A stretch of DNA of 64,000 nucleotides, from positions 1 to 64,000 of the IMG/VR virus record IMGVR_UViG_3300005714_000005. One strand, given 5' to 3'. This DNA comes from a virus. Its lineage: Duplodnaviria; Caudoviricetes. Below the pieces are notes generated by a model, which had not been told where the DNA came from, searched no databases, and saw only the letters and a list, made by a program, of their open reading frames with translations. Made by a program: the position numbers and the translations under genes. This document shows positions 4,500 to 27,690 of the stretch, in pieces; within the stretch, counting starts at the first letter, position 1, and the number at the start of each line of letters is the position of its first letter.

Positions 4500-5300
4500 A
4501 TATTGTTCTGATATTGGCATATGATTGTATTGTTAGTGGATCATGAATAGGTAATTTGTTGGTTATGGTAGATAGGTGATTGAGTGGTTAGTGATATGAT
4601 AGGTGTGATTGATATGATAATAGTATGATAGTGGTGATGAAATAGGTGTGATATAGTGGGAAATGGATAGGCGAATAAGAGGAATATAACTATTATATAG
4701 ATAGTAAAATAGTAAAATAAGTGAGTGAATACAGAACAACACACAACTCACAAAAACTCAAAAAATGGCAAAAAATAGCCCCTTTTCTGAGTCCCCCATT
4801 GGTTGCGACAATATGTATTATAGAAACCAATGGGGGGTATATTTCCATATTTTAGGGGGTTTTATCCTTGAAAAATTGTCGTAACACTCCCATTTTCACA
4901 CCAACTCAATTTTCAATCAATCCCACTCAATCCCATCTATCCATTTCATTAAACTCCCACAATACTAACGTTCTACCAACATTTCAACTCAACTTCATAG
5001 AACTCAACCTAACTAAATCCAACCTAATTTACCAACTATCCATAACTCAATACCAACTAACCTCCATGAAACTATCCACTCAACCTATCAACCTATCTAA
5101 TTTAACCCTTGTTCAGTTCTGAACTTTCGCTTAACTACCCATTTATTTCATTTCAAATATCCTACATTTCAACCTTAAAATCTACCCAATCGCTATTGTT
5201 GCAACTTTCCTATATCCCTTTTCACTTTGATTTACGATAAAACCTTAAATCAATGAATACATGCCTTTCTTGACTTCATATTTTACCCACAAGGGGTAGG
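4500..5300. other. Non-coding strand-skewed region; possible genome end, packaging or terminus region
   Basis: G/T-rich, C-poor 4500-4730 switches to C/A-rich, G-poor 4880-5230; repeated (A/C)ACTCAA; GGGGGTAT motifs. Confidence 0.55.
4801..4828. other. dif-like tyrosine-recombinase site
   Basis: GGTTGCGACAA-TATGTA-TTATAGAAACC (11-6-11) within a 12-bp perfect inverted repeat 4793-4804/4825-4836. Confidence 0.6.
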
Positions 5301-6446: not shown

Positions 6447-6461
6447 ATAGGAGAGATTGAG

Positions 6462-12845: not shown

Positions 12846-15800
12846 ATGGCAAACCTATACAGCATTAGAAAAATAGTGAAAATTCCTAGCTCAATGCTAA
12901 GCGAATCAAATCCCAAGTGGGAATTGCGAGTAAGTTTGCAAGATTTGAAGTCAAACAACCAAATTATTGGTTTGGCTTCATCTTACATTATTAGAACTCT
13001 TGATGTGATTGCAAATAGTAATTACTCAGAGAATTATGTTGTGGAACTAAAACAAAATATTAAGGCATTGTCAAAGGAAAAGACAAATGTAAAAAGTAGA
13101 CAAGAAATGAAAAAGCTAAACGATGAATTGTTTAGACAACTATACATTCCTCATTTATGTTGTATTCACATTGACAAAGGTAGCCATTATGATAGATTGA
13201 ATAAAGGTTTTAGCATTTGTGTTTATGATGAGGAAACTGGGGAAATTCTAAGTGAGGTTAATTTCAAACGTTTCTTATCAACTTCTGCTTCTATTAAGAA
13301 AAATGAAGTATTCTATATAAATGAAGATTACAAAGAAACCTTAATGAAATATGTAGACTGTGAACGTGATGAAACCATTAAATTTGTTCCTGCTAAATTA
13401 AGTGCCTATCAAGCTCTTACGATGAGTAGTAGTAATCCAGTTACGACTCCATATAACGTTTGCGTTGTTAATGATGTTGAAAGAGAGATTATCACACCCG
13501 TCTTAGAACTAGATGACTCTAAACAAGAAGAGCCTATTGTAACTCAAATAGATGACTATAAAATGAACTTAAATTGTAGTGATGGTTTTGGTTTTATTGA
13601 TGAAGAAATGGCTAGTCAATGGGCAGAGGATTTACACCTGGATTATGTTCCTAGCTCATTCATTACTCGTCATGCTTTCTGCAAAGGTGTATTAGCACGT
13701 TTCCCATATAAAGAATTTGCAAAAGAACATAATATAAAAACTATCACTGACATTTGGGGTAAAGTTTGGGATATTGAAGAAGTTGATATAATCTTGACAA
13801 CCTCAATGTTAAAACTAGCTAACTGTTATTCAAGTTGGGATGATTATTATACAAAAACCCAAAAATATTTATACACTTTTAGCGTAACAAAATATACAGC
13901 TAAGACTTTGGATATGGAAAGAACAACCAACTATCAGTTTATTCAGTCTATGGAATGGACAGATGAAGATATTAAAGGTTTCTTAAAACCAAGCCTAGAT
14001 GAAATCAAGGCTATCAAAGGAGCAGATTGGCAACGTTCTCTCGTCTACCTACGAGGTATGAGCCTAAATGAAGATAGCAAGGTGTTGAGAGATGACTACA
14101 CAAGTGCCTTGATGATTGAACCACGAATTATAGAAGATTCATATGTGAGAACTTCAATTAATAATATGATTAAGAAACGTTTAGACGATTGTAAAAAAGG
14201 AACGATTAAAGTCAGAGGAAATTATCAAACGGTTATCATTGACCCAATTCTCCTTGCCCAAAGTATGTTAGGTTTACCATTGAACCCATTGCTAGGTAAA
14301 GGAGAATACTATAGCAACTTTTGGAATCGACTAGGTGTTGATTATGTTGTATCAATGAGAGCGCCACAAGTTTCATACTCAAATATTGCACGAATGAAAC
14401 TAAAGAATACGGAAGAAATGCAAAAATGGTATCGTTATTTGGGCGAAATGTTTATTCTAAATGGTTGTGACGCAACTTGTGCTAGAATGTCAGGATGCGA
14501 CTGCGATAAATAATGTCACATTGTCGCAGTATAAAACGAGGTGAACCTTACCAGGGGTGTGTAACTTGAAGTTATGCTAACGATGGAAGCCCTAACGTGA
14601 AGTCGAGGGTAATATCGTGCCAAGTCCTAGAGATAGGGAAGGTGTAGAGACTATGGGTGATGAATGTAGCCCAGTACAATCACTATTGGTACGTGGTTGG
14701 AAGTGCCTCGCTATCGTAAGATAGAAGAGATAGTCCATTCCCTATGGAAACATAGGGTAGTAAAGGGTGACACAGTATTTAGCACCGATGATAAATATAT
14801 CATTAAAGGAGCTATGCGAGAAGTATTACCTGTTGTTTGTTTACAGAAATCCGCTTCTAAACAAATTTGTGACGAAAATTCATTTATTGAATCCGATAAA
14901 ATCTTAATCAAAGGTACGGTTGAAGATGTTGGTACGGTTACAAATCGTGCAACAAATATTGAATCATTTAAAGCCAACTTCCCAAGAGATAGTAAAGAAT
15001 GGAAAGAACTTGACTATCGTGTTCAAGCGTGTATTGCAATATCACAGAATTCGATTAACTTTTAGTCGAAGTAAAACTCGGTGAACTCACAAATGCGAGG
15101 TGTATAGCCAACGTATAGGATATGTAGGAAATGGCATATAATGGCTATGCTAACAGGGGAACTCCTAACGTAAAGGCGAGGACAATCCTGTGCTAAGTCC
15201 TAGCAATAGGAAAAGTGCAACGACTATCGAAAAGGTATCTTAGGAGAAAAACCTGAGAGAGCAACTGAGTAGAGTACACTCAAGGTGAAATTCCTTGTTT
15301 GGAAGTGCCGAGGTCTTGCATGTTGGTAACAGAAGTGCAAGATATGATATAGTCTACTCTCTATGGAAACATAGAGTGTCAAGGAGATTGTGCAAAGGGA
15401 ATTAAAATCGAATATGGTTTTCCTAAGTCATGGATATTGCAAAAACCAAACATAATTAGCGATAGAGATACAGAAGAAGAAAAACAACGTAAACAATTTT
15501 ATCAAACTCTTGTTTGTGATAAGAAACCGTATTTCTTCATCTATGTGTATGAACATCTGAAGAAAGAATATAACAAATTAAAACGAGATGAAGATAAACG
15601 TTGCTTAAAGGCTTTTGGCAAAACATTGCAAGAAGTATTAGACAATCCTGAAACTCAAGAAGAAAAAGATGCAGTATTCTACTACAATCGTAAAAAGATT
15701 ATTGATGAGTCACCTAGCGTCATGAATAAGATTGCTTGGTTCGTGGAAGAAGAATTTAAAAAATTCTCATTGCCAAAACCCAAAAAGGACGAATACATAG

Positions 15801-16213
15801 AATTACTAAAATCAGACAAGGCTTATAGCAAAACTACATATAGTAAAATCTTACCTCTTTATGAGGAGTATGTAAAGACAGTTAGAAATTTAAACAATAA
15901 ATTCTTACTTAATAAAACAAGTAGTTCTGAAAAGACATTAATTAGAGAAACTACGTTTAATGAGTTAAAAATTAAAATGTTATCTATTTGTTCAAATGAA
16001 GAAGAATTGTGCAATATCTTAATTGATATTTGCTATAAAAATTCTAAAAATTCAAAACACTTTGCTTGGACAATGTGTGGAGAACAAATTATCAAAAATC
16101 TATTAAGCAAGAATGAAAATAAAGTAAGCTATCCTATCTTGACAGAAAATGAAGAATTTGATTTTGAATACAAAGGCTATAAATTTAGAATGTTTACTAA
16201 GGAGTGTGAATAA
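12846..16213 (+). CDS. yonO: YonO-like single-subunit RNA polymerase; spliced join(12846..14507,14766..15055,15385..16213), ~926 aa
   Basis: Motifs SDGFG, FCKG, SMLK, NYQF, RAP; splicing restores catalytic SGCDCDGD and QNSIDCAKG; frames join exactly. Confidence 0.85.
14508..14765 (+). ncRNA. Group I intron (ORF-less) inside the RNAP catalytic motif
   Basis: P1 actgcgaU/Gtcgcagt; P10 tgtcac/gtgaca; P7 gactat/atagtc; terminal G. Confidence 0.9.
15056..15384 (+). ncRNA. Group I intron (ORF-less), second in RNAP
   Basis: P1 ttcgaU/Gtcgaa; P7 gactat/atagtc; P9 ctctatg-gaaa-catagag; terminal G; restores the frame. Confidence 0.88.
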
Positions 16214-16214
16214 G

Positions 16215-16988
16215 ATGGACATTATAGCTAATGAAGTAAGATATGTTGAAAAGCTATTAACAAACAAAACACTGACAACACGCAAGGCGAGCAAAGAGAT
16301 TAGATTGGTGGCTCAATACCACCTCTCTAATGGCTTATCGGTGGAAGAAGCAACCGAAGAGACCGTAGGTTTTATTAGTCAAGTAAACGGAAACAATAGT
16401 GGTGAAAAGTGGCGAAAAACCATAAATGGCATGATTAAAGACATATTGAAAAAGAATGATTTGAAAATGCGACAAGTAGATACAATTAATTTTACAAAAA
16501 ATGAAATAAAAACAATAGAATCGTTACAAAAGGAATCTCAAAGAAGATATGCATGGGGATTATTGGTTCTATGTAAAGTTGTGAACAATGGTAAGAAAAA
16601 CAAATGGTTGACTATAGAGCATACCAACAAGTTTTGTAAAAAGATAGGGGTTCGAATGTCAACAGTAAAAAATAGGGAGTTGGTATTTCACGAATTAAAA
16701 AATGAACATTTGCTAAAAATATCTAGGCAAACAGGAAATACTAGCATGGAAGTTTTGTATGTGGAAGATGAGGGGGAAATTTTCGCTTCATGCCCAACTT
16801 ATAATCACTTAACTTCCGAAGAAAATTATTTCGAGAATGCAATGAAGCTATATGAGATGATATTTAATGGGGCGAGAGTTTACAAATGTGAAGTTTGCAA
16901 AGCTTATGCTCTAGCCAAAACAAGAACAAAAAAATATTGCGATACTTGTGCTGAAGAGGTGAAAAGAGGGCGAGTTAAGAATGGCTAA
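16215..16988 (+). CDS. Hypothetical protein with C-terminal zinc ribbon, next to RNAP
   Basis: CEVC...YCDTC; coupled to the RNAP stop. Confidence 0.7.
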   Translation: MDIIANEVRYVEKLLTNKTLTTRKASKEIRLVAQYHLSNGLSVEEATEETVGFISQVNGNNSGEKWRKTINGMIKDILKKNDLKMRQVDTINFTKNEIKTIESLQKESQRRYAWGLLVLCKVVNNGKKNKWLTIEHTNKFCKKIGVRMSTVKNRELVFHELKNEHLLKISRQTGNTSMEVLYVEDEGEIFASCPTYNHLTSEENYFENAMKLYEMIFNGARVYKCEVCKAYALAKTRTKKYCDTCAEEVKRGRVKNG

Positions 16989-18018
16989 TGTCTATACTTC
17001 TGAAGAATTAAATAATCTAAGAAATATAAAGATGATTATCTATATAATAACTAATCTCCTCAATCAAAAGAAATACGTGGGGCAAACTTCACGAACTTTT
17101 AATGAAAGATATAAAGGCTCGGGAGTTGGTGTTTTCAGAGTAAAGGGGTGTGAATCCAACTCACACCTTGCCTCTGCCATTCAAAAATACGGTGCAGATA
17201 ATTTTAAGGTTGAAATTATAGAGGTCTGTGGAACTAAAGAAGAATTGAACGAAAGAGAAAAATATTATATTGAGTTATATGACACAACAAATCCCCAAAA
17301 GGGATATAACTACTGCGAAGGTGGCGGTAGTGGCGTTCGCAATATCACAAGAGATTCAAAAAGAAAAAAGATATTGAAACAACACCAAGAGTTGAAACCA
17401 CAGACTTTTGCAAATTATTTGAAGAAATTAAAAATTAATGGACTATCAGAAGAAACTGTTCTTTCTGAAATTTTAGAAACTCCTCTATTTATAGAAAATG
17501 TAAAAGGCGAAGTAAAATATTTTTCTTCTCTTTCCAAGTTTCAAAAATCATTAGGAAAGAAAGAACAAAACATTGTGAAATTGCATTACTTCTATAAAGT
17601 TTCAAGAAATGAAATAAATAAAGAGCTTTACAAAACAAAATTTTATCCCTACACCTTTTATAGAGAAGATGAAGTCAACCTTCCTCAACATATAGTAAAA
17701 ATAAAAACTCAATTAGAACAAAAGAGAAAAGAAAAGCAGGAGAAAGATAAGATAGCCAACGATTTGTTAAACACAATTACTTATCTATTAGAAAAACATG
17801 GGGAGTGGGAAGTGTGGGAGGAAGAAACGATAGAGCGTGTAGTCATAACAAAACGTGGTTGGGTAGTTCAAGAAGATAAATACGAACAATACTTACAAGA
17901 CTTGATAAAAGTAGTAGAAGAAAGTCACCCTTATTATTGGGATTTAATATTTAAAGAGGGTGATGATTGGAAAATCAACTTCTTTCTAATTGACTTTTAT
18001 AATAAAATTTACAAATAA
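16981..18018 (+). CDS. GIY-YIG homing endonuclease (free-standing)
   Basis: IIYIITN...KYVGQT...LNEREKYYI...GYN. Confidence 0.85.
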   Translation: MANVYTSEELNNLRNIKMIIYIITNLLNQKKYVGQTSRTFNERYKGSGVGVFRVKGCESNSHLASAIQKYGADNFKVEIIEVCGTKEELNEREKYYIELYDTTNPQKGYNYCEGGGSGVRNITRDSKRKKILKQHQELKPQTFANYLKKLKINGLSEETVLSEILETPLFIENVKGEVKYFSSLSKFQKSLGKKEQNIVKLHYFYKVSRNEINKELYKTKFYPYTFYREDEVNLPQHIVKIKTQLEQKRKEKQEKDKIANDLLNTITYLLEKHGEWEVWEEETIERVVITKRGWVVQEDKYEQYLQDLIKVVEESHPYYWDLIFKEGDDWKINFFLIDFYNKIYK

Positions 18019-18121
18019 CAACTAAAAAAGTAAAAGTGTAAAATTTCACAACCCCTTATAAACGTTGGTATTACCATGTTTTTAAGGGGTTTTATTTTAA
18101 AAAGTGCAACTCTATTTACAT

Positions 18122-18302
18122 GAGTACATATATAGTAGCAATTGCACATTATGTACTCCATCTCTCATTACTTAACAACACTCCTATTTATTTTTACTGT
18201 TTTTCATACACTCTCAATCCTTTCACAACCACTAGACCTTTATCTAGTGGTCTCCTAAAATAACCAACTAAGTTCCTCTCTCCTCTTGGTTGGTTATTTT
18301 AG
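18122..18302 (+). ncRNA. Candidate sRNA cluster with anti-RBS segments
   Basis: Three hairpins plus C/U-rich linkers complementary to RBS+ATG sequences. Confidence 0.5.
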
Positions 18303-18323
18303 AAGTTATAAAGGAGGAATACT

Positions 18324-18872
18324 ATGGCAAAGACAGATAACCCTTGTCCACAGATTGAATTTATCCGATTACTAGCTTCTAAGTTAAATGTAACCATAGA
18401 GGTTGCAGAATTTATTTACAAAACCTATGGAGTAGTAGGGTTGGAATTAATGCAACAATACAATTCATTAAAGATAACACCTTACATATTCCTAGAGCGT
18501 AAGAACTCCCCTAGTCGTGATTATTTCAATATTCACACAGGAGAATATGAGCAAACAGAATCCAAAGATAGGCTATATGCTAGAGTGTCACATACCAATC
18601 GTGATGTTGACCAAGCTATGAGGCACATAGATATATACGAGGAAATGTTGGCTAGACAAGAAATGTATGAAGCTCAGAAAGAGCAAGAACGTCTACTCAA
18701 AGAGAAAGAGGCTAAACGTGAAAAACGTAATCGTCAAGCTCGTACAAGAAGACGTAAGAAAAATCAACGTGCTAAGAAGAAAGCGATAGAGCGATTAATC
18801 CACTATGAGGTAATTTACCACCAAGAGGAGCAACGTAAATATCGCAAGGAATTAGACCAACGTAGAAAATAA
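18324..18872 (+). CDS. HU/IHF-like DNA-binding protein with basic tail
   Basis: EFIRLLASKL...RDYFNIHTGE arm-like motif; Arg/Lys-rich C-terminus. Confidence 0.6.
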   Translation: MAKTDNPCPQIEFIRLLASKLNVTIEVAEFIYKTYGVVGLELMQQYNSLKITPYIFLERKNSPSRDYFNIHTGEYEQTESKDRLYARVSHTNRDVDQAMRHIDIYEEMLARQEMYEAQKEQERLLKEKEAKREKRNRQARTRRRKKNQRAKKKAIERLIHYEVIYHQEEQRKYRKELDQRRK

Positions 18873-20392: not shown

Positions 20393-20487
20393 TTTATAAA
20401 AACTCAACTTTTTATAAATAAGTGTTGACCTTTGTAAACCTATGGTATATAATATGAATGTAAGCACAAGAGAGAAAGGTTGATAAT

Positions 20488-20751: not shown

Positions 20752-20754
20752 TAA

Positions 20755-20829
20755 CTAGATACATAAAATTCCCCTCCTACTCATTGCTAGTTGGGTAGGA
20801 TTATTGAAAAACTTAGGTGAGGTATCTAG
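20755..20829 (+). ncRNA. Candidate anti-RBS hairpin sRNA
   Basis: Stem ctagatac/gtatctag enclosing cataaaattcccctcct. Confidence 0.45.
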
Positions 20830-20868
20830 CAGTACCAATATGCCAATCGACTTGAAAGTTAAGGGGTT

Positions 20869-21504
20869 ATAATTGTCGCTTTTATTCATCGGAGTTTTGG
20901 GAGGTGCTTAAACTGTACCCAAGAGCGAAGTAGGCGTTTAAGCTGAAAAGTTCCTCCGCAACCTACAGGGAAGTGTAAGTCTTAGCTAATTCGGTAGCCC
21001 CGTCTAGTTAAGCAGTCCTTGTTATCAAGTCTTTTTGCAGAGTTAGACGTTTGAAAGAAACTACTGTATAGGATTAATGTGCGTACAGAAAAGTCCGAGG
21101 AAGTGGCAATCCTTATAAACCACTAGATGATTCTTGTCTTAGCCGATACAGACAAGCTAAAAATAAAGAAAGGTCGGCTATCAAATGTAATTGTCATAGA
21201 GCGTGACAACGGTAAAATAAATAAAGCTCAATGGATGAAGCGGATGTGGTGTCTGTCTCATGACGTTGATGTAGTTTTCCTTGTTTGAGGGTGGCTATGG
21301 AGTTCTTTAGGGTGTGTGGTCGCCTGTTTCAAACTAGGAACTGAAGTTCAAAAATATCACATATGTAATAGCAATGCGATAGAAGCTACTATGTAGTCAA
21401 GGAATCGACAGACATTTATATCTTTGGTCAGAAACTAAGGATATTGACCGATAGTCTCGTGAAGTCATAAAACTATAAGCCCATGCGTGGTCGAGACAAA
21501 TTAT
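20869..21504 (+). ncRNA. Large structured ncRNA, ROOL-like
   Basis: ~640 nt with no ORF, GC above background, paired ends (ataattgtc/gacaaattat), many hairpins; GAGCGAAGTA and TGTAAGTCTTAGCT recall ROOL from memory only. Confidence 0.6.
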
Positions 21505-21618
21505 GTTGTATCTAGTGACTAGCATTGGTGCAATTCCAATGGACAACTTAAACCAATCTATAGCTTACTTGGTGGCTAGTAAAATAACGACCAAGACAGA
21601 GAGAAAGGAAATGATATT

Positions 21619-22041: not shown

Positions 22042-25019
22042 GTGAAAGAGTATATTAAGTTAAATAACGAGGTCATGCAAAAGGTAGACGGTTTCTACCA
22101 ATTAGATAAAGACAAGGAAGCAGTTAAAGCTTTCGAGAAAGAAGTTAAAGAACGATTAATGGATTTCGATTCATTAGAACAACGATATAAATGGTTAATT
22201 GACAATGATTACTATGTAGATTTCTTAGAAACATACGATATGGATTTCATTGAGAAATTAACAAAATATATTTATGATTTTAACTTCGAGTTCCAATCAT
22301 ACATGGCTATCTCTAAATTTTATCAAAGTTATGCCTTAAAGACAAATGATAAAAAATATTATTTAGAAACATATGAGGAACGTATCATAGCGTGTGCATT
22401 ATATTTAGCACAAGGAGATGAAGAATTTGCTTGGGAATTAGCAGAAGCTATGATTAAGCAACAATATCAACCAGCCACACCAACATTTCAAAATGCTGGT
22501 AAGAAACGTGGAGGAGAAATGATTTCATGTTTCTTATTGGAAATGGACGATACATTAAACTCTATCAACTATAACCTATCTACAATGGGGCAATTATCTA
22601 AAATAGGTGGAGGAGTATCTTGCAATTTATCTAAACTCCGTGGTCGTGGCGAGTCAATCAAAGGAGTTGAAGGTGCTGCTAGTGGAGTAGTACCAGTCAT
22701 GAAGCTTATGGAGGACACATTCTCATATGTAAATCAGTTGGGTTAAAAATACTTTGGCTCGGTATACTGGTGACAGTGTACAAAAACTATGGGGTAAATT
22801 GCTGGAACACCCTAAAGCTCTCATGCCTATGCAATAGGAGTCGAAAGACAGAAACAAGTTGAGAGATGACCTATGTTGAAATAAAAGCCGAAAGGTACTA
22901 AGGGTTATTATAATGGGCAATCAGCAGCCACATAAATCAACTCTCTTTAAAAACAAGGGAGAGGATAATCTTGGAAGAAATTTGGAAACCATGTAAAGAC
23001 TACGAAGGACTATATGAAGTTTCTAACTTGGGAAGAGTTAGAAGTTGCGATAAAATGGTTTGGAATGGTCGAACTTACTATTTTAAGAAAGGTGAGTTAA
23101 AAGCACCTAAACATAGAAAAGATGGTTATTTAACAGTATCGCTATATAAGAATAATGTGGGAAAACAGGTAAGAATACATAGACTTGTAGCTTTCGCTTT
23201 TATCGAAAACGAAAATCCTGACTTATATAAAGACGTTAATCACATAGACTGTAATCGCTCAAATAATGAAGCAACAAATTTAGAATGGTGCAATGCTTTA
23301 ACAAACCACGAACATAGCCATAAATTGGGGAGAAAAACAGAACCTCCAACTCATTATGGTGAAGATAATAAATTCTCTACACCTGTTTATGTTACATTGT
23401 TAAAAACAGGTGAGATATTGGAATTTGTTAGCATAAGTGATGGTTTGAAGTATTTAGGAGTTGCTAATCCCTATTCTAAAGTTGCAAATGTATTTGCTTC
23501 AATTAAGAGAAACGGAACAGCCTATGGTTGCAAATGGAAACTAAAAGAGAGTTGATTTATAGGTTCAGAGACTAAAATCCCACATCTCACTGAGATGAAG
23601 ATATAGTCCATCCCCTCGTGAAAGCGAGGGACTAAGATGCAAAGACCTGGAGCAGGTGTAGCCTACTTAAATATCTTTCATTGGGATATTGAAGAATTTT
23701 TAGAAACTAAGAAAATCAATGCTAGTGAGAAAGCACGATTACAAACATTAAGTATTGGTGTTGTAATTCCTGATAAATTTATCGAATTAGCAAGAGAGAA
23801 TAAAGACGTATACGTATTTGCACCTTATACAGTTTATAAAGAATATGGGCAACATTTAGATGACATAGATATTGATAAAGTTTACGAAGATTTGGTTGCG
23901 AATCCAAATGTAAAGAAACGTAAATTAAATCCTCGTACATTATTGACAAATATTGCACGAAGTCAATTTGAGTCAGGTTATCCATATATCATGTATAAAT
24001 CTAATGCAAATAAAGTCCATGCCTTAAAGAATATTGGTGATATTAAAATCTCTAACCTCTGCACCGAAATTTTTCAATTACAAGAAACTTCAATTATCAA
24101 CGACTATGGGATTGAAGATGAAATCAAACGTGATATTAACTGCAACTTAGGTTCGCTTAATATTGTCAACGTTATGGAAAATAAAAGTATTGACAAAGCA
24201 GTAGCAATGGGTATGAGAGCATTAACTTCTGTATCTAATATGAGTAATGTTGCCAATGCACCAGGAGTTAAAAAAGCTAATGAAGAACTTCATGCAGTTG
24301 GTTTAGGTGCTATGAATTTACATGGCTACTTAGCTAAAAATAAAATTGCTTATGAAAGTGAAGAAGCAAAAGATTTCGTTCGCACATTCTTCATGATTGT
24401 CAATTATTATTCTATCTTAGAAAGTTCACTTATTGCAATGGAAAGAAATGAAACATTTAAAGATTTTGATAAATCGGAATATGCAAATGGTAACTATTTT
24501 AAGAAATATATTAAGAATGACTATTCACCAAAAACAGAAAAAGTTAAAAAATTGTTTGAGGGGATTTACATTCCTAATCTATTAAATTGGCAAGGATTAT
24601 CTGAAATTGTTGCAGAACATGGTATGTATCATGCCTATCGTTTGGCTATTGCACCTACTCAATCTATTGGTTATGTGCAAAACGCAACACCAAGTATTGC
24701 ACCTATCGTTAGCGTAGTAGAAACACGCACATATGCAGACTCAACCACATATTATCCAATGCCATTCTTAGACAAGAAAAATTTCTTCTTCTACAAATCG
24801 GCATATCAAATGGATATGATGAAAGTTATTGACTTGGTGGCAGAGGCACAAGAGCATATAGATCAAGGTATCTCAACGGTATTATATGTAGATAGCAATA
24901 CACCAACAAGCCAACTTGTGAGATACTATATGTATGCACATTTCAAGGGATTAAAAAGTTTATATTATACACGCACAAAATTATTAACAGCAACAGAATG
25001 TGAAAGTTGCTCAGTTTAG
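22042..25019 (+). CDS. nrdE: Class Ib ribonucleotide reductase alpha; join(22042..22743,23640..25019), ~693 aa
   Basis: PATPTF, SCFLL, NQLG|QRPGAG, SNLCTEI, CNLGS, IAPT, C-terminal CESCSV. Confidence 0.95.
22744..23639 (+). mobile_element. Group I intron in nrdE encoding an HNH endonuclease
   Basis: Exon ends in U; P10 ctttg/caaag; aatcagcag, gagacta and gatatagtcc core elements; terminal G. Confidence 0.9.
22971..23555 (+). CDS. Intron-encoded NUMOD4-HNH endonuclease
   Basis: EIWKPCKDYEGLYEVSNLGRVRS; HRLVA...VNHIDCNRSNN...NLEW. Confidence 0.92.
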   Translation: MEEIWKPCKDYEGLYEVSNLGRVRSCDKMVWNGRTYYFKKGELKAPKHRKDGYLTVSLYKNNVGKQVRIHRLVAFAFIENENPDLYKDVNHIDCNRSNNEATNLEWCNALTNHEHSHKLGRKTEPPTHYGEDNKFSTPVYVTLLKTGEILEFVSISDGLKYLGVANPYSKVANVFASIKRNGTAYGCKWKLKES

Positions 25020-27390: not shown

Positions 27391-27414
27391 TAATTAAAGA
27401 GAGCCTTTAGGCTT

Positions 27415-27502
27415 TCTAATATCTACGTCATCAACCCTTCATTTTTCATAATTCTCCCCTCCTCATTAAATATGTGATTTACACGATGACGTGGATATTA
27501 GA
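27415..27502 (+). ncRNA. Candidate anti-RBS hairpin sRNA
   Basis: 18-bp stem; loop contains the complement of GAGGAGGGGAGAATT-ATG-AAAAATGAAGGG. Confidence 0.55.
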
Positions 27503-27613
27503 GATTCTAAAATCTCTAAAGTACAATGTTGAATTCTATCAAGTAGATTGCGATAAGTTATCCCAATATATATTGACTTATCACTAAGAATCAGAGGGTG
27601 CGTGCCCTCATAT

Positions 27614-27690
27614 GCTAGTGTAGCTCAGTTGGTAGAGCAATCGCATGGTAAGCGATAGGTCGTGGGTTCAAGCCCCATCATCTAGCACCA
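27614..27690 (+). tRNA. tRNA-Thr(GGU)
   Basis: Cloverleaf; anticodon arm ATCGC-ATGGTAA-GCGAT; TTCAAGC T loop; encoded CCA. Confidence 0.9.

Follow-up and report, generated by a model that had tools for sequence, protein, structure and literature searches.

Leaders and attenuators that sequester an SD are known from both Gram-positive bacteria and phages. The leader of the lambda N gene is opened by RNase III, and the operator of T4 gene 32 has a structured element on its 5′ side, from which an unstructured tract leads into the ribosome-binding site. The phage leader analyzed here resembles such SD-sequestering leaders in its fixed place 5′ of one gene, in having a pyrimidine strand complementary to the SD, and in the arrangement of kept hairpins and then an unstructured tract reaching the SD, to which relatives of the phage add a terminator-like hairpin. 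It has, however, no sequence or Rfam relation to them, its spacer is G-free and C/U-rich instead of A/U-rich, it possesses several redundant anti-SD strands, and, unlike the examples of the T4 gene 32 type, it serves an HU-like gene and not the gene of a single-strand-binding protein. Most likely, the leader exemplifies an as yet undescribed cis-regulatory RNA motif that belongs to one clade of the SPbeta-like phages of gut Bacillota.

Other described systems share individual elements of this design. In RsaE/RoxS and RNAIII of the Bacillota, unpaired C-rich or pyrimidine motifs complementary to GGAG-type SDs are likewise displayed in loops and between hairpins, whereas the phage element has no transcription unit or terminator of its own in the DNA analyzed, has no Rfam match, is always fused to the SD of one gene, and carries CUCC/CCUCC motifs with U-rich flanks, similar to the 16S rRNA tail, in place of the UCCC/CCCC boxes of those RNAs. 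Rut sites, e.g., that of lambda tR1, are also C-rich, G-poor, unstructured over 40-85 nt, hairpin-flanked and intergenic, but the blocks of the phage spacer are conserved across clades, and Rho dependence is for the phage a candidate property only. The UCCCC motif of the icaR 3′ UTR of Staphylococcus aureus is, as the strands considered here would be, a pyrimidine anti-SD that masks the SD of its own mRNA; in the phage the candidate anti-SD instead precedes the SD by a few to 100 nt, within the 5′ leader.

Genomic Setting of the Leader

The window, i.e., the whole 64,000-nt stretch of DNA that was analyzed, covers the first 64 kb of an IMG/VR viral contig of 105.7 kb with an estimated completeness of 68%. 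The phage is distantly related to SPbeta, to Clostridium phage c-st and to Enterocloster phages. A preliminary description of the window had taken the genome to be otherwise plus-strand, which did not hold for the contig as a whole, as its genes are coded on the plus strand up to ~72 kb and on the minus strand for the remainder (72000-105750), a region where the plus strand has a G content of 0.13 and a C content of 0.20. The features with which this account is concerned are as follows, with z scores and energies being those of predicted plus-strand folds.

12846-16213: YonO-type RNA polymerase gene, interrupted by group I introns
16981-18018: GIY-YIG homing endonuclease gene, 5′ neighbor of the gap that contains the leader
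18054-18099, plus strand: intrinsic terminator of the endonuclease gene, a long hairpin with the tip AAACGUUGGUAUUACCAUGUUU and then a U-run
18115-18122, plus strand: motif UUUACAU-G at the 5′ base of hairpin 1
18122-18158, plus strand: hairpin 1, 9-bp stem GAGUACAUA/UAUGUACUC, 19-nt loop, z = -3.2
18159-18227, plus strand: spacer, a single G in 69 nt, C ~28%, C/U-rich, single-stranded
18162-18185, plus strand: spacer block A, CUCUCAUU..ACUCCU
18210-18224, plus strand: spacer block B, ACUCUCAAUCCUUUC, resembling the 3′ tail of 16S rRNA
18228-18251, plus strand: hairpin 2, 9 bp, z = -5.4
18252-18256, plus strand: linker CUCCU, complementary to SD bases AGGAG (18312-18316)
18255-18302, plus strand: hairpin 3, 18 pairs including one U-G, -22.6 kcal/mol, z = -8.4
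18273-18284, plus strand: loop of hairpin 3, UUCCUCUCUCCU, 12 nt, pyrimidine
18312-18317, plus strand: SD AGGAGG, with the start codon ATG at 18324-18326
18324-18872, plus strand: HU-like gene, 182 aa, N-terminal domain weakly HU/IHF-like, tail charged

The HU domain of the 182-aa protein is a weak one, with a match to PF00216 (E = 0.01) that was below the Pfam cut-off, and homologs of the protein gave similarly weak matches. The place of the gene corresponds to that of yonN of SPbeta, and the order of RNA polymerase gene and then HU-like gene is common to SPbeta, PMBT24 and c-st, where the equivalent position is occupied by yonN or by a gene annotated as histone-like. When SPbeta, Enterocloster phage PMBT24 and Clostridium phage c-st were examined for a homolog of the leader, all three were found to lack it, although they share the gene order. 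Searches of the phage collection with the leader region and the downstream gene, at the nucleotide-near and the protein level, produced no match, nor did scans of viral contigs with single proteins.

The window phage also carries ribonucleotide reductase genes, and YonJ/YonG-like genes are present in its relatives. Because introns split the polymerase gene, PF05183 had no match in the window's own genome. A 32-nt block of the kind found at the 3′ end of group I introns occurs in three copies (14727-14758, 15346-15377 and 23600-23631) and, together with the single Rfam group I intron match (15046-15376), suggests that the YonO-like polymerase gene has two introns and that a third separates the two parts of the gene for the large subunit of ribonucleotide reductase (22971-23555 and 23637-25019).

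The leader (18112-18323) sits in a 305-nt gap (18019-18323) which it shares with the terminator of the endonuclease gene. All of the relatives have a terminator at the equivalent position, and the tip AAACGUUGGUAUUACCAUGUUU (18063-18084 region in the window) recurs in four of them, namely L006, L008 (twice), L010 and L012. This tip is kept and the outer stem covaries (window 18063-18084; L008 3496-3760; L012 1416-1470), with the L008 region representing a tandem duplicate of a module comprised of the terminator, UUACAUGG and a hairpin. In both the window and L012 the module with the terminator tip is directly 3′ of the GIY-YIG homing endonuclease gene, and the final codons of the endonuclease ORF of the window are intergenic sequence in L006.

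Anatomy of the Leader

The preliminary description had placed hairpins at 18122-18158 and 18228-18251, followed by an 18-bp stem at 18255-18302 with a displayed loop, and all three structures were present, the first two with 9-bp stems. The two segments that it had read as "anti-RBS" are blocks A and B of the spacer. The apical part of hairpin 1 in the window carries UAGUAGCAAUUGCAC, and the CUCCU linker is able, in a limited-span fold, to lengthen hairpin 3 over an 11-nt bulge. In the window, hairpin 2 is followed by CUCCUAAAAU, with only 2 U in the 8 nt on its 3′ side, and does not have the look of a terminator; a scan for intrinsic terminators in the window flagged neither hairpin 2 (then CUCCUAAA) nor hairpin 3 (then GAAGUUAU), and no terminator was found between hairpin 1 and the HU-like gene. 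From this anatomy, co-transcription of the leader with the HU-like gene would be expected; a look-up among public runs listed no RNA sample containing the sequence.

Where such a transcript would begin is suggested by the motif UUUACAU-G, which may mark a transcription start or a processing site. Of 13 distinct leaders, nine have it in the form (U/A)(U/A)ACAU-GR and four as U(U)-AGGG. As a recurring phage promoter, TTTACATGR was considered and discarded, as it occurs at chance frequency in the window and is unique to the leader site in each relative. No sigma-70-type promoter was evident at the leader, and the YonO paper gives no promoter sequence; that no promoter was recognized is a point against the region being the leader of the HU-like gene.

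Conservation among Relatives

Homologs of the 182-aa protein, from 90% down to 42% identity, were traced to their contigs and represent about nine clades. Directly 5′ of every HU-like homolog fetched was the same architecture, i.e., a terminator, the 5′ motif, hairpin 1, a G-poor spacer, hairpin 2, a pyrimidine linker, hairpin 3 and the SD, in that order. The gene 5′ of the leader varies, encoding a homing endonuclease in the window and L012/L013 only and a 246-266-aa protein elsewhere, and because this upstream neighbor differs, the leader can be said to belong with the downstream gene.

Hairpin 1 was found in 13 of 13 distinct leaders despite unrelated stem sequences, and its UAG.AGCAR-like apical motif is kept across them. 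A covariance model built from hairpins 2 and 3 identified exactly one site per genome, scoring 58-118 bits on the plus strand and no more than 35 bits on the minus strand. In the alignment of these two hairpins 98.2% of cells were paired and 15 of 28 pairs had double-sided changes, none of 500 shuffles was as good, and slid controls were 31-50% paired, although the alignment had been fitted to the model, which somewhat favors structure. The changes are distributed over both helices, affecting both sides of 5 of the 8 pairs of helix 1 (hairpin 2, 100% of cells paired) and of 10 of the 20 pairs of helix 2 (hairpin 3). Stems differ outright between clades, e.g., ACCAACYAAG, GGUGUCUAG, GUAUCUAAG, CCACUGAA and ACCCAC. 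The loop of hairpin 3, in contrast to its fully replaced stem, has remained pyrimidine-rich in the relatives; it is C/U-rich in all clades and contains CUCC in most.

Rfam 15 scans of the window and six relatives produced no family above noise for the leader, with the score for icaR_3p_UTR, for instance, being 9.8 bits against a threshold of 369. Taken with the absence of a terminator between leader and gene in the window, the constant place 5′ of each homolog whatever the upstream gene, the compensatory changes on the sense strand and the single copy per genome argue for 18112-18323 being a cis-acting structured 5′ leader/attenuator of the HU-like gene that masks its SD, an interpretation whose chances we would put at about even.

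The spacer ranges from 41 to 85 nt with 0-5 G in all relatives (in L011 it is 43 nt with 0 G and 44% C), and its blocks CCUCUCAUUCAAA and CCUCCCUUUCCUC, or variants of them, are kept across clades. Kept blocks of this kind, and the kept hairpin 1 apex, are also what a binding site for a factor would show, which detracts from the cis-leader interpretation. The spacer could accordingly be a loading site for a factor, either as a Rho utilization (rut) site or by virtue of the blocks and the hairpin 1 apex binding a protein in the manner of lambda boxA/boxB, and so control read-through into the HU-like and later genes. A rut site is expected to have at least 40-80 unstructured nt with high C and very low G, and the window spacer, with its 1 G and ~28% C in 69 nt, has such a composition, as do the spacers of the relatives (28-44% C), which are single-stranded between hairpins; a terminator-like hairpin 2 stands just 3′ in most clades, the kept sequences in single strand and at the apex suggest recognition by a factor, and there are other intergenic G-free C-rich tracts in the genome (4879-5197, 27412-27473 and 69803-69855). 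Rut sites are normally poorly conserved in sequence, however, no N-, Q- or LoaP-like gene was recognized nearby, and the order of a hairpin and then a single strand is unlike that of the lambda nut sites, so that we consider a factor-loading role to be unlikely.

The Working Strand

In its base content (G 0.11, C 0.20) the leader region resembles antisense coding sequence, and the minus strand reads AGGAG-N12-ATG and AGGA-N10-ATG, opening ORFs of 18 and 7 codons exactly as the preliminary description had listed them. One reading considered was that the minus strand is the functional one, whether via translated mini-ORFs or an antisense promoter or transcript, or that the element acts as DNA, e.g., as an operator or origin. 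The SD-like motifs with ATG on that strand, the coding-antisense composition, and the retention of ATGAGAG in 7 of 11 relatives could all be cited in its favor. Nevertheless, no conserved reading frame or peptide was found for the mini-ORFs among the relatives: the peptides range from 4 to 18 aa and are unrelated in length and sequence, the L006 type has none, and the SD and ATG pattern is near chance for the composition. The earlier judgment that the mini-ORFs are not genes was thereby upheld.

The hairpins themselves also indicate the plus strand. There are G-U pairs in 25 cells of hairpins 2 and 3 and in 22 of 219 pairs of hairpin 1, leaving the hairpins poor on the minus strand. Because these pairs would be C-A mismatches there, and because minus-strand folds are weaker, the functional form is the plus-strand RNA, including hairpin 1. 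The covariance model gave a score of 98 bits on the plus strand versus 30 on the minus strand, and the energy of hairpin 1 is far better on the plus strand in L011, L012, L020 and L034 (in L011, -19.1 versus -5.5 kcal/mol). A plus-strand RNA had been proposed from the outset, and a minus-strand or DNA-level function now appears highly improbable.

Predicted Masking of the SD

Five clades (L011, L012, L020, L034 and L037) have the SD within the helix that forms the base of hairpin 3, where the linker CUUUUUU pairs with AAAGGAG or AAAGAGG. In the window type, CUCC(U) replaces the U-run and is Watson-Crick complementary to the AGGAG of an SD that is shifted 11 nt downstream. Judged from these sequences, a pyrimidine strand opposite the SD appears to have been kept by two different solutions, CUUUUUU and CUCC. 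By partition-function folding of 11 leaders, the SD was predicted to be paired in 10 (probability of being unpaired, 0.00-0.13), and the predicted value for the window SD (0.01) is the sixth lowest of 108 genes in its genome. In the folding of the window, it is the spacer that pairs with the SD.

Such masking was not specific to the natural sequence. When the upstream part was shuffled with its composition kept, the SD was masked about as well, and for this reason the predicted masking is best viewed as following from the pyrimidine composition without G, no single precise helix being responsible. This finding weakens the case for a cis-acting leader, as does the observation that the segment 5′ of hairpin 2 shows no co-evolution with its own start: over ten clades, the mean pairing energy of spacer and start was -11.5 kcal/mol for cognate and -11.8 kcal/mol for non-cognate combinations.

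If the cis-acting leader is nevertheless the correct interpretation, its pyrimidine strands (the linker, spacer block B and perhaps the loop) would pair with the purine-rich SD, and the masked ribosome-binding site would cause translation of the HU-like gene to be held down or timed. Relatives may have an additional step, since hairpin 2 is followed by 6-7 U in L011, L012, L020, L034 and L037, and by 4-7 U in most relatives, and by its sequence looks like an intrinsic terminator or attenuator. In most relatives, then, hairpin 2 and its U-run could also serve as a partial intrinsic terminator (attenuator) and, after read-through, the same U-run would become the SD-pairing strand at the base of hairpin 3. 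In the lineage of the window the U-run would have been turned into CUCC, with a stronger anti-SD and no terminator as the outcome. Hairpin 1, and perhaps hairpin 3, might shield the mRNA from 5′ exonucleases or act as processing sites.

That last possibility can be extended to a reading of the whole leader as processing and stability signals with no anti-SD role, in which hairpin 1 is a 5′ stabilizer against RNase J-type decay, hairpin 3 an RNase III site, and the spacer a tract that avoids false SDs and starts. RNase III sites occur in the early transcripts of T7 and SP82, and the 17-21-bp uninterrupted stems of the leaders are typical RNase III substrates. ATG, GTG and TTG starts all need a G; the G-free tract contains no start codon or SD, and its anti-SD motifs occur at about the rate expected for its composition. 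What this reading fails to explain is that the SD is in or beside the base of hairpin 3 in every clade, with complementarity of the linker provided by either CUUUUUU or CUCC, and that the sequence blocks are conserved beyond composition, and we deem it quite unlikely.

Do the Anti-SD Strands Act as Guides?

The preliminary description had interpreted the spacer as carrying complements of two translation starts, the guides of a separate small RNA that would silence specific mRNAs. The motifs do exist, and two SD and ATG patterns are present on the minus strand, but shuffled spacers had a mean of 0.34-0.57 such patterns and P(>=2) was 0.06-0.12, which is not clearly beyond chance. CUCC and CAU motifs are common because the tract is made of A, C and U only. 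The strong signal is the G-free C-rich composition together with the hairpins, and the "antisense translation starts" within the G-free tract are largely a by-product of that composition.

Pairing energies were computed against 125 translation starts of the phage genome. The best partners had z scores of approximately -3, near the extreme to be expected from 125 draws. Two specific candidates were rejected: that segment 2 is antisense to the gene's own start, which had been suggested by the full-length fold (the start of the HU-like gene was only an average partner of the spacer segments, at rank 60-75 of 125, and no cognate advantage was seen in 10 clades), and that segment 1 pairs with the start of gene 1979, where a 10-nt match (AUGAGAGAUG) is at about chance level. 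The distance between the "guide" halves also varies from 5 to 12 nt among the relatives. Specific guides thus found no support, given the variable segment length and spacing, the lack of co-evolution with the starts tested, and complements that are generic SD motifs; nor did a separate small-RNA gene, as the window has no terminator and the element invariably adjoins the SD of one and the same gene 3′ of it. From the original interpretation there survive the plus-strand RNA, the dismissal of the mini-ORFs as genes, and the kept loop.

A more general trans action has some merit. Either the leader itself or a short RNA with its 3′ end at hairpin 2 or 3 could display mimics of the 16S tail (block B and the loop) and, as a trans-acting anti-SD RNA, repress phage or host mRNAs. 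In at least five clades the 6-7 U after hairpin 2 constitute a canonical intrinsic terminator, and the product released there would be built as Gram-positive sRNAs usually are, with a hairpin at the 5′ end, then a single strand rich in C and U, and a terminator. The loop of hairpin 3 stays pyrimidine-rich, mostly with CUCC, as its stem is replaced, and similar loops at 27415 and in L024 have no SD in cis to mask. The complement of the loop, AGGAGAGA/GAGAGGAA, is found at about 20 phage gene starts as a generic extended SD; AGGAGAGA is unusually common at the starts of this phage, e.g., at 6449, 10463, 25032, 38531, 72926 and 86746. On the other hand, a U-run follows neither hairpin 2 nor hairpin 3 in the lineage of the window, the element was found only next to the HU-like gene and in a single copy per genome, the variable spacing of the halves is unhelpful to guides, no Rfam sRNA family matches, and low-complexity matches of (CU)n with (GA)n are generic. 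Overall, trans repression by the leader seems rather unlikely.

One candidate target remains. The best partner of the loop region among the 125 starts was that of the polymerase gene at 12846 (-27.2 kcal/mol, versus -22.4 for the next), and the polymerase start was also the loop's best partner in L002 (-31.6 kcal/mol, 10-11 nt perfect) and L024. The polymerase gene is a few kb upstream, and its start and the hairpin 3 loop change together in the window, L002 and L024, but in L026 a different start is the better partner, and in L011 the polymerase start leads only marginally. As both sides are (CU)n/(GA)n-like, the pairing is retained as a hypothesis only, i.e., that the leader, or an RNA freed at hairpin 2, is a mimic of the 16S rRNA 3′ tail acting in trans on the purine-rich starts of the phage, that of the YonO-like polymerase in particular, a proposal we regard as a long shot. 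If true, it would mean feedback of a middle-gene leader on synthesis of the polymerase, and the loops at 27415 and in L024 would be of the same class.

Other G-Free Tracts

Sense-strand tracts that are G-free and C-rich are rare in the genome, being limited to 4879-5197, 18145-18234, 27412-27473 and 69803-69855. The preliminary description had reported that the design of the leader recurs at 20755 and 27415. Resemblance was all that could be substantiated, with a strong fold at 27405-27510 (z = -7.7) and a weak one at 20755-20832 (z = -2.0), and the covariance model of hairpins 2 and 3 had no match at 20755 or 27415. The 27405-27510 region forms a strong plus-strand stem with one U-G pair and a ~52-nt G-poor loop containing CCCCUCCU/UCUCCCCUCCUCAU, and is upstream of a tRNA-Thr gene (27614-27690). 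In L024, a hairpin whose loop, ACCUCCUCUUUCU, resembles the 16S tail stands at 14850-14990 together with a G-free tract, 3′ of a tRNA-like sequence. G-poor CCUCC loops such as those at 27412-27473 and in L024, near tRNAs and with no SD nearby to mask, are not what a purely cis-acting leader would predict, and because of them the pyrimidine tracts may have a more general role, either in trans or with a bound factor.

One such tract belongs to a pair, a C-free G/T/A tract of ~180 nt (4519-4700) followed by a G-free C-rich tract of ~320 nt (4879-5197, C 0.28-0.35), both inside a non-coding gap of 900 nt that extends from a terminator to the early promoter next in line. SPbeta (L028 3769-3923) has a similar-looking G-free tract, CACUUCCAUUUCCACACC, upstream of yonP-yonO. 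The paired tracts might represent a non-coding element that SPbeta-like phages conserve, with an origin, a site for packaging and a long RNA among the candidate functions. The region at 20752-21618 is an 867-nt non-coding and G-richer one, with a near-consensus sigma-70 promoter upstream (20425-20453) and an Rfam 6A RNA match at 21186-21236 (45 bits, threshold 41); it parallels the 1.7-kb non-coding gap between yonN and yonK of SPbeta, which has an unannotated ncRNA.

Implications for SPbeta-Like Phages

This analysis adds a well-supported and undescribed RNA motif to the large and little-studied group of SPbeta-like phages that have a YonO-type single-chain polymerase. Because the motif precedes a phage histone-like gene, it is probable that the leader sets the timing or the amount of synthesis of an abundant factor for DNA packaging or transcription. 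With its uncommon design of a G-free spacer, several strands that resemble the 16S tail, and a U-run common to a terminator and an SD-masking helix, it would make a good test case for how Gram-positive phages tune translation or read-through, and the motif could be used for the annotation of related metagenomic contigs.
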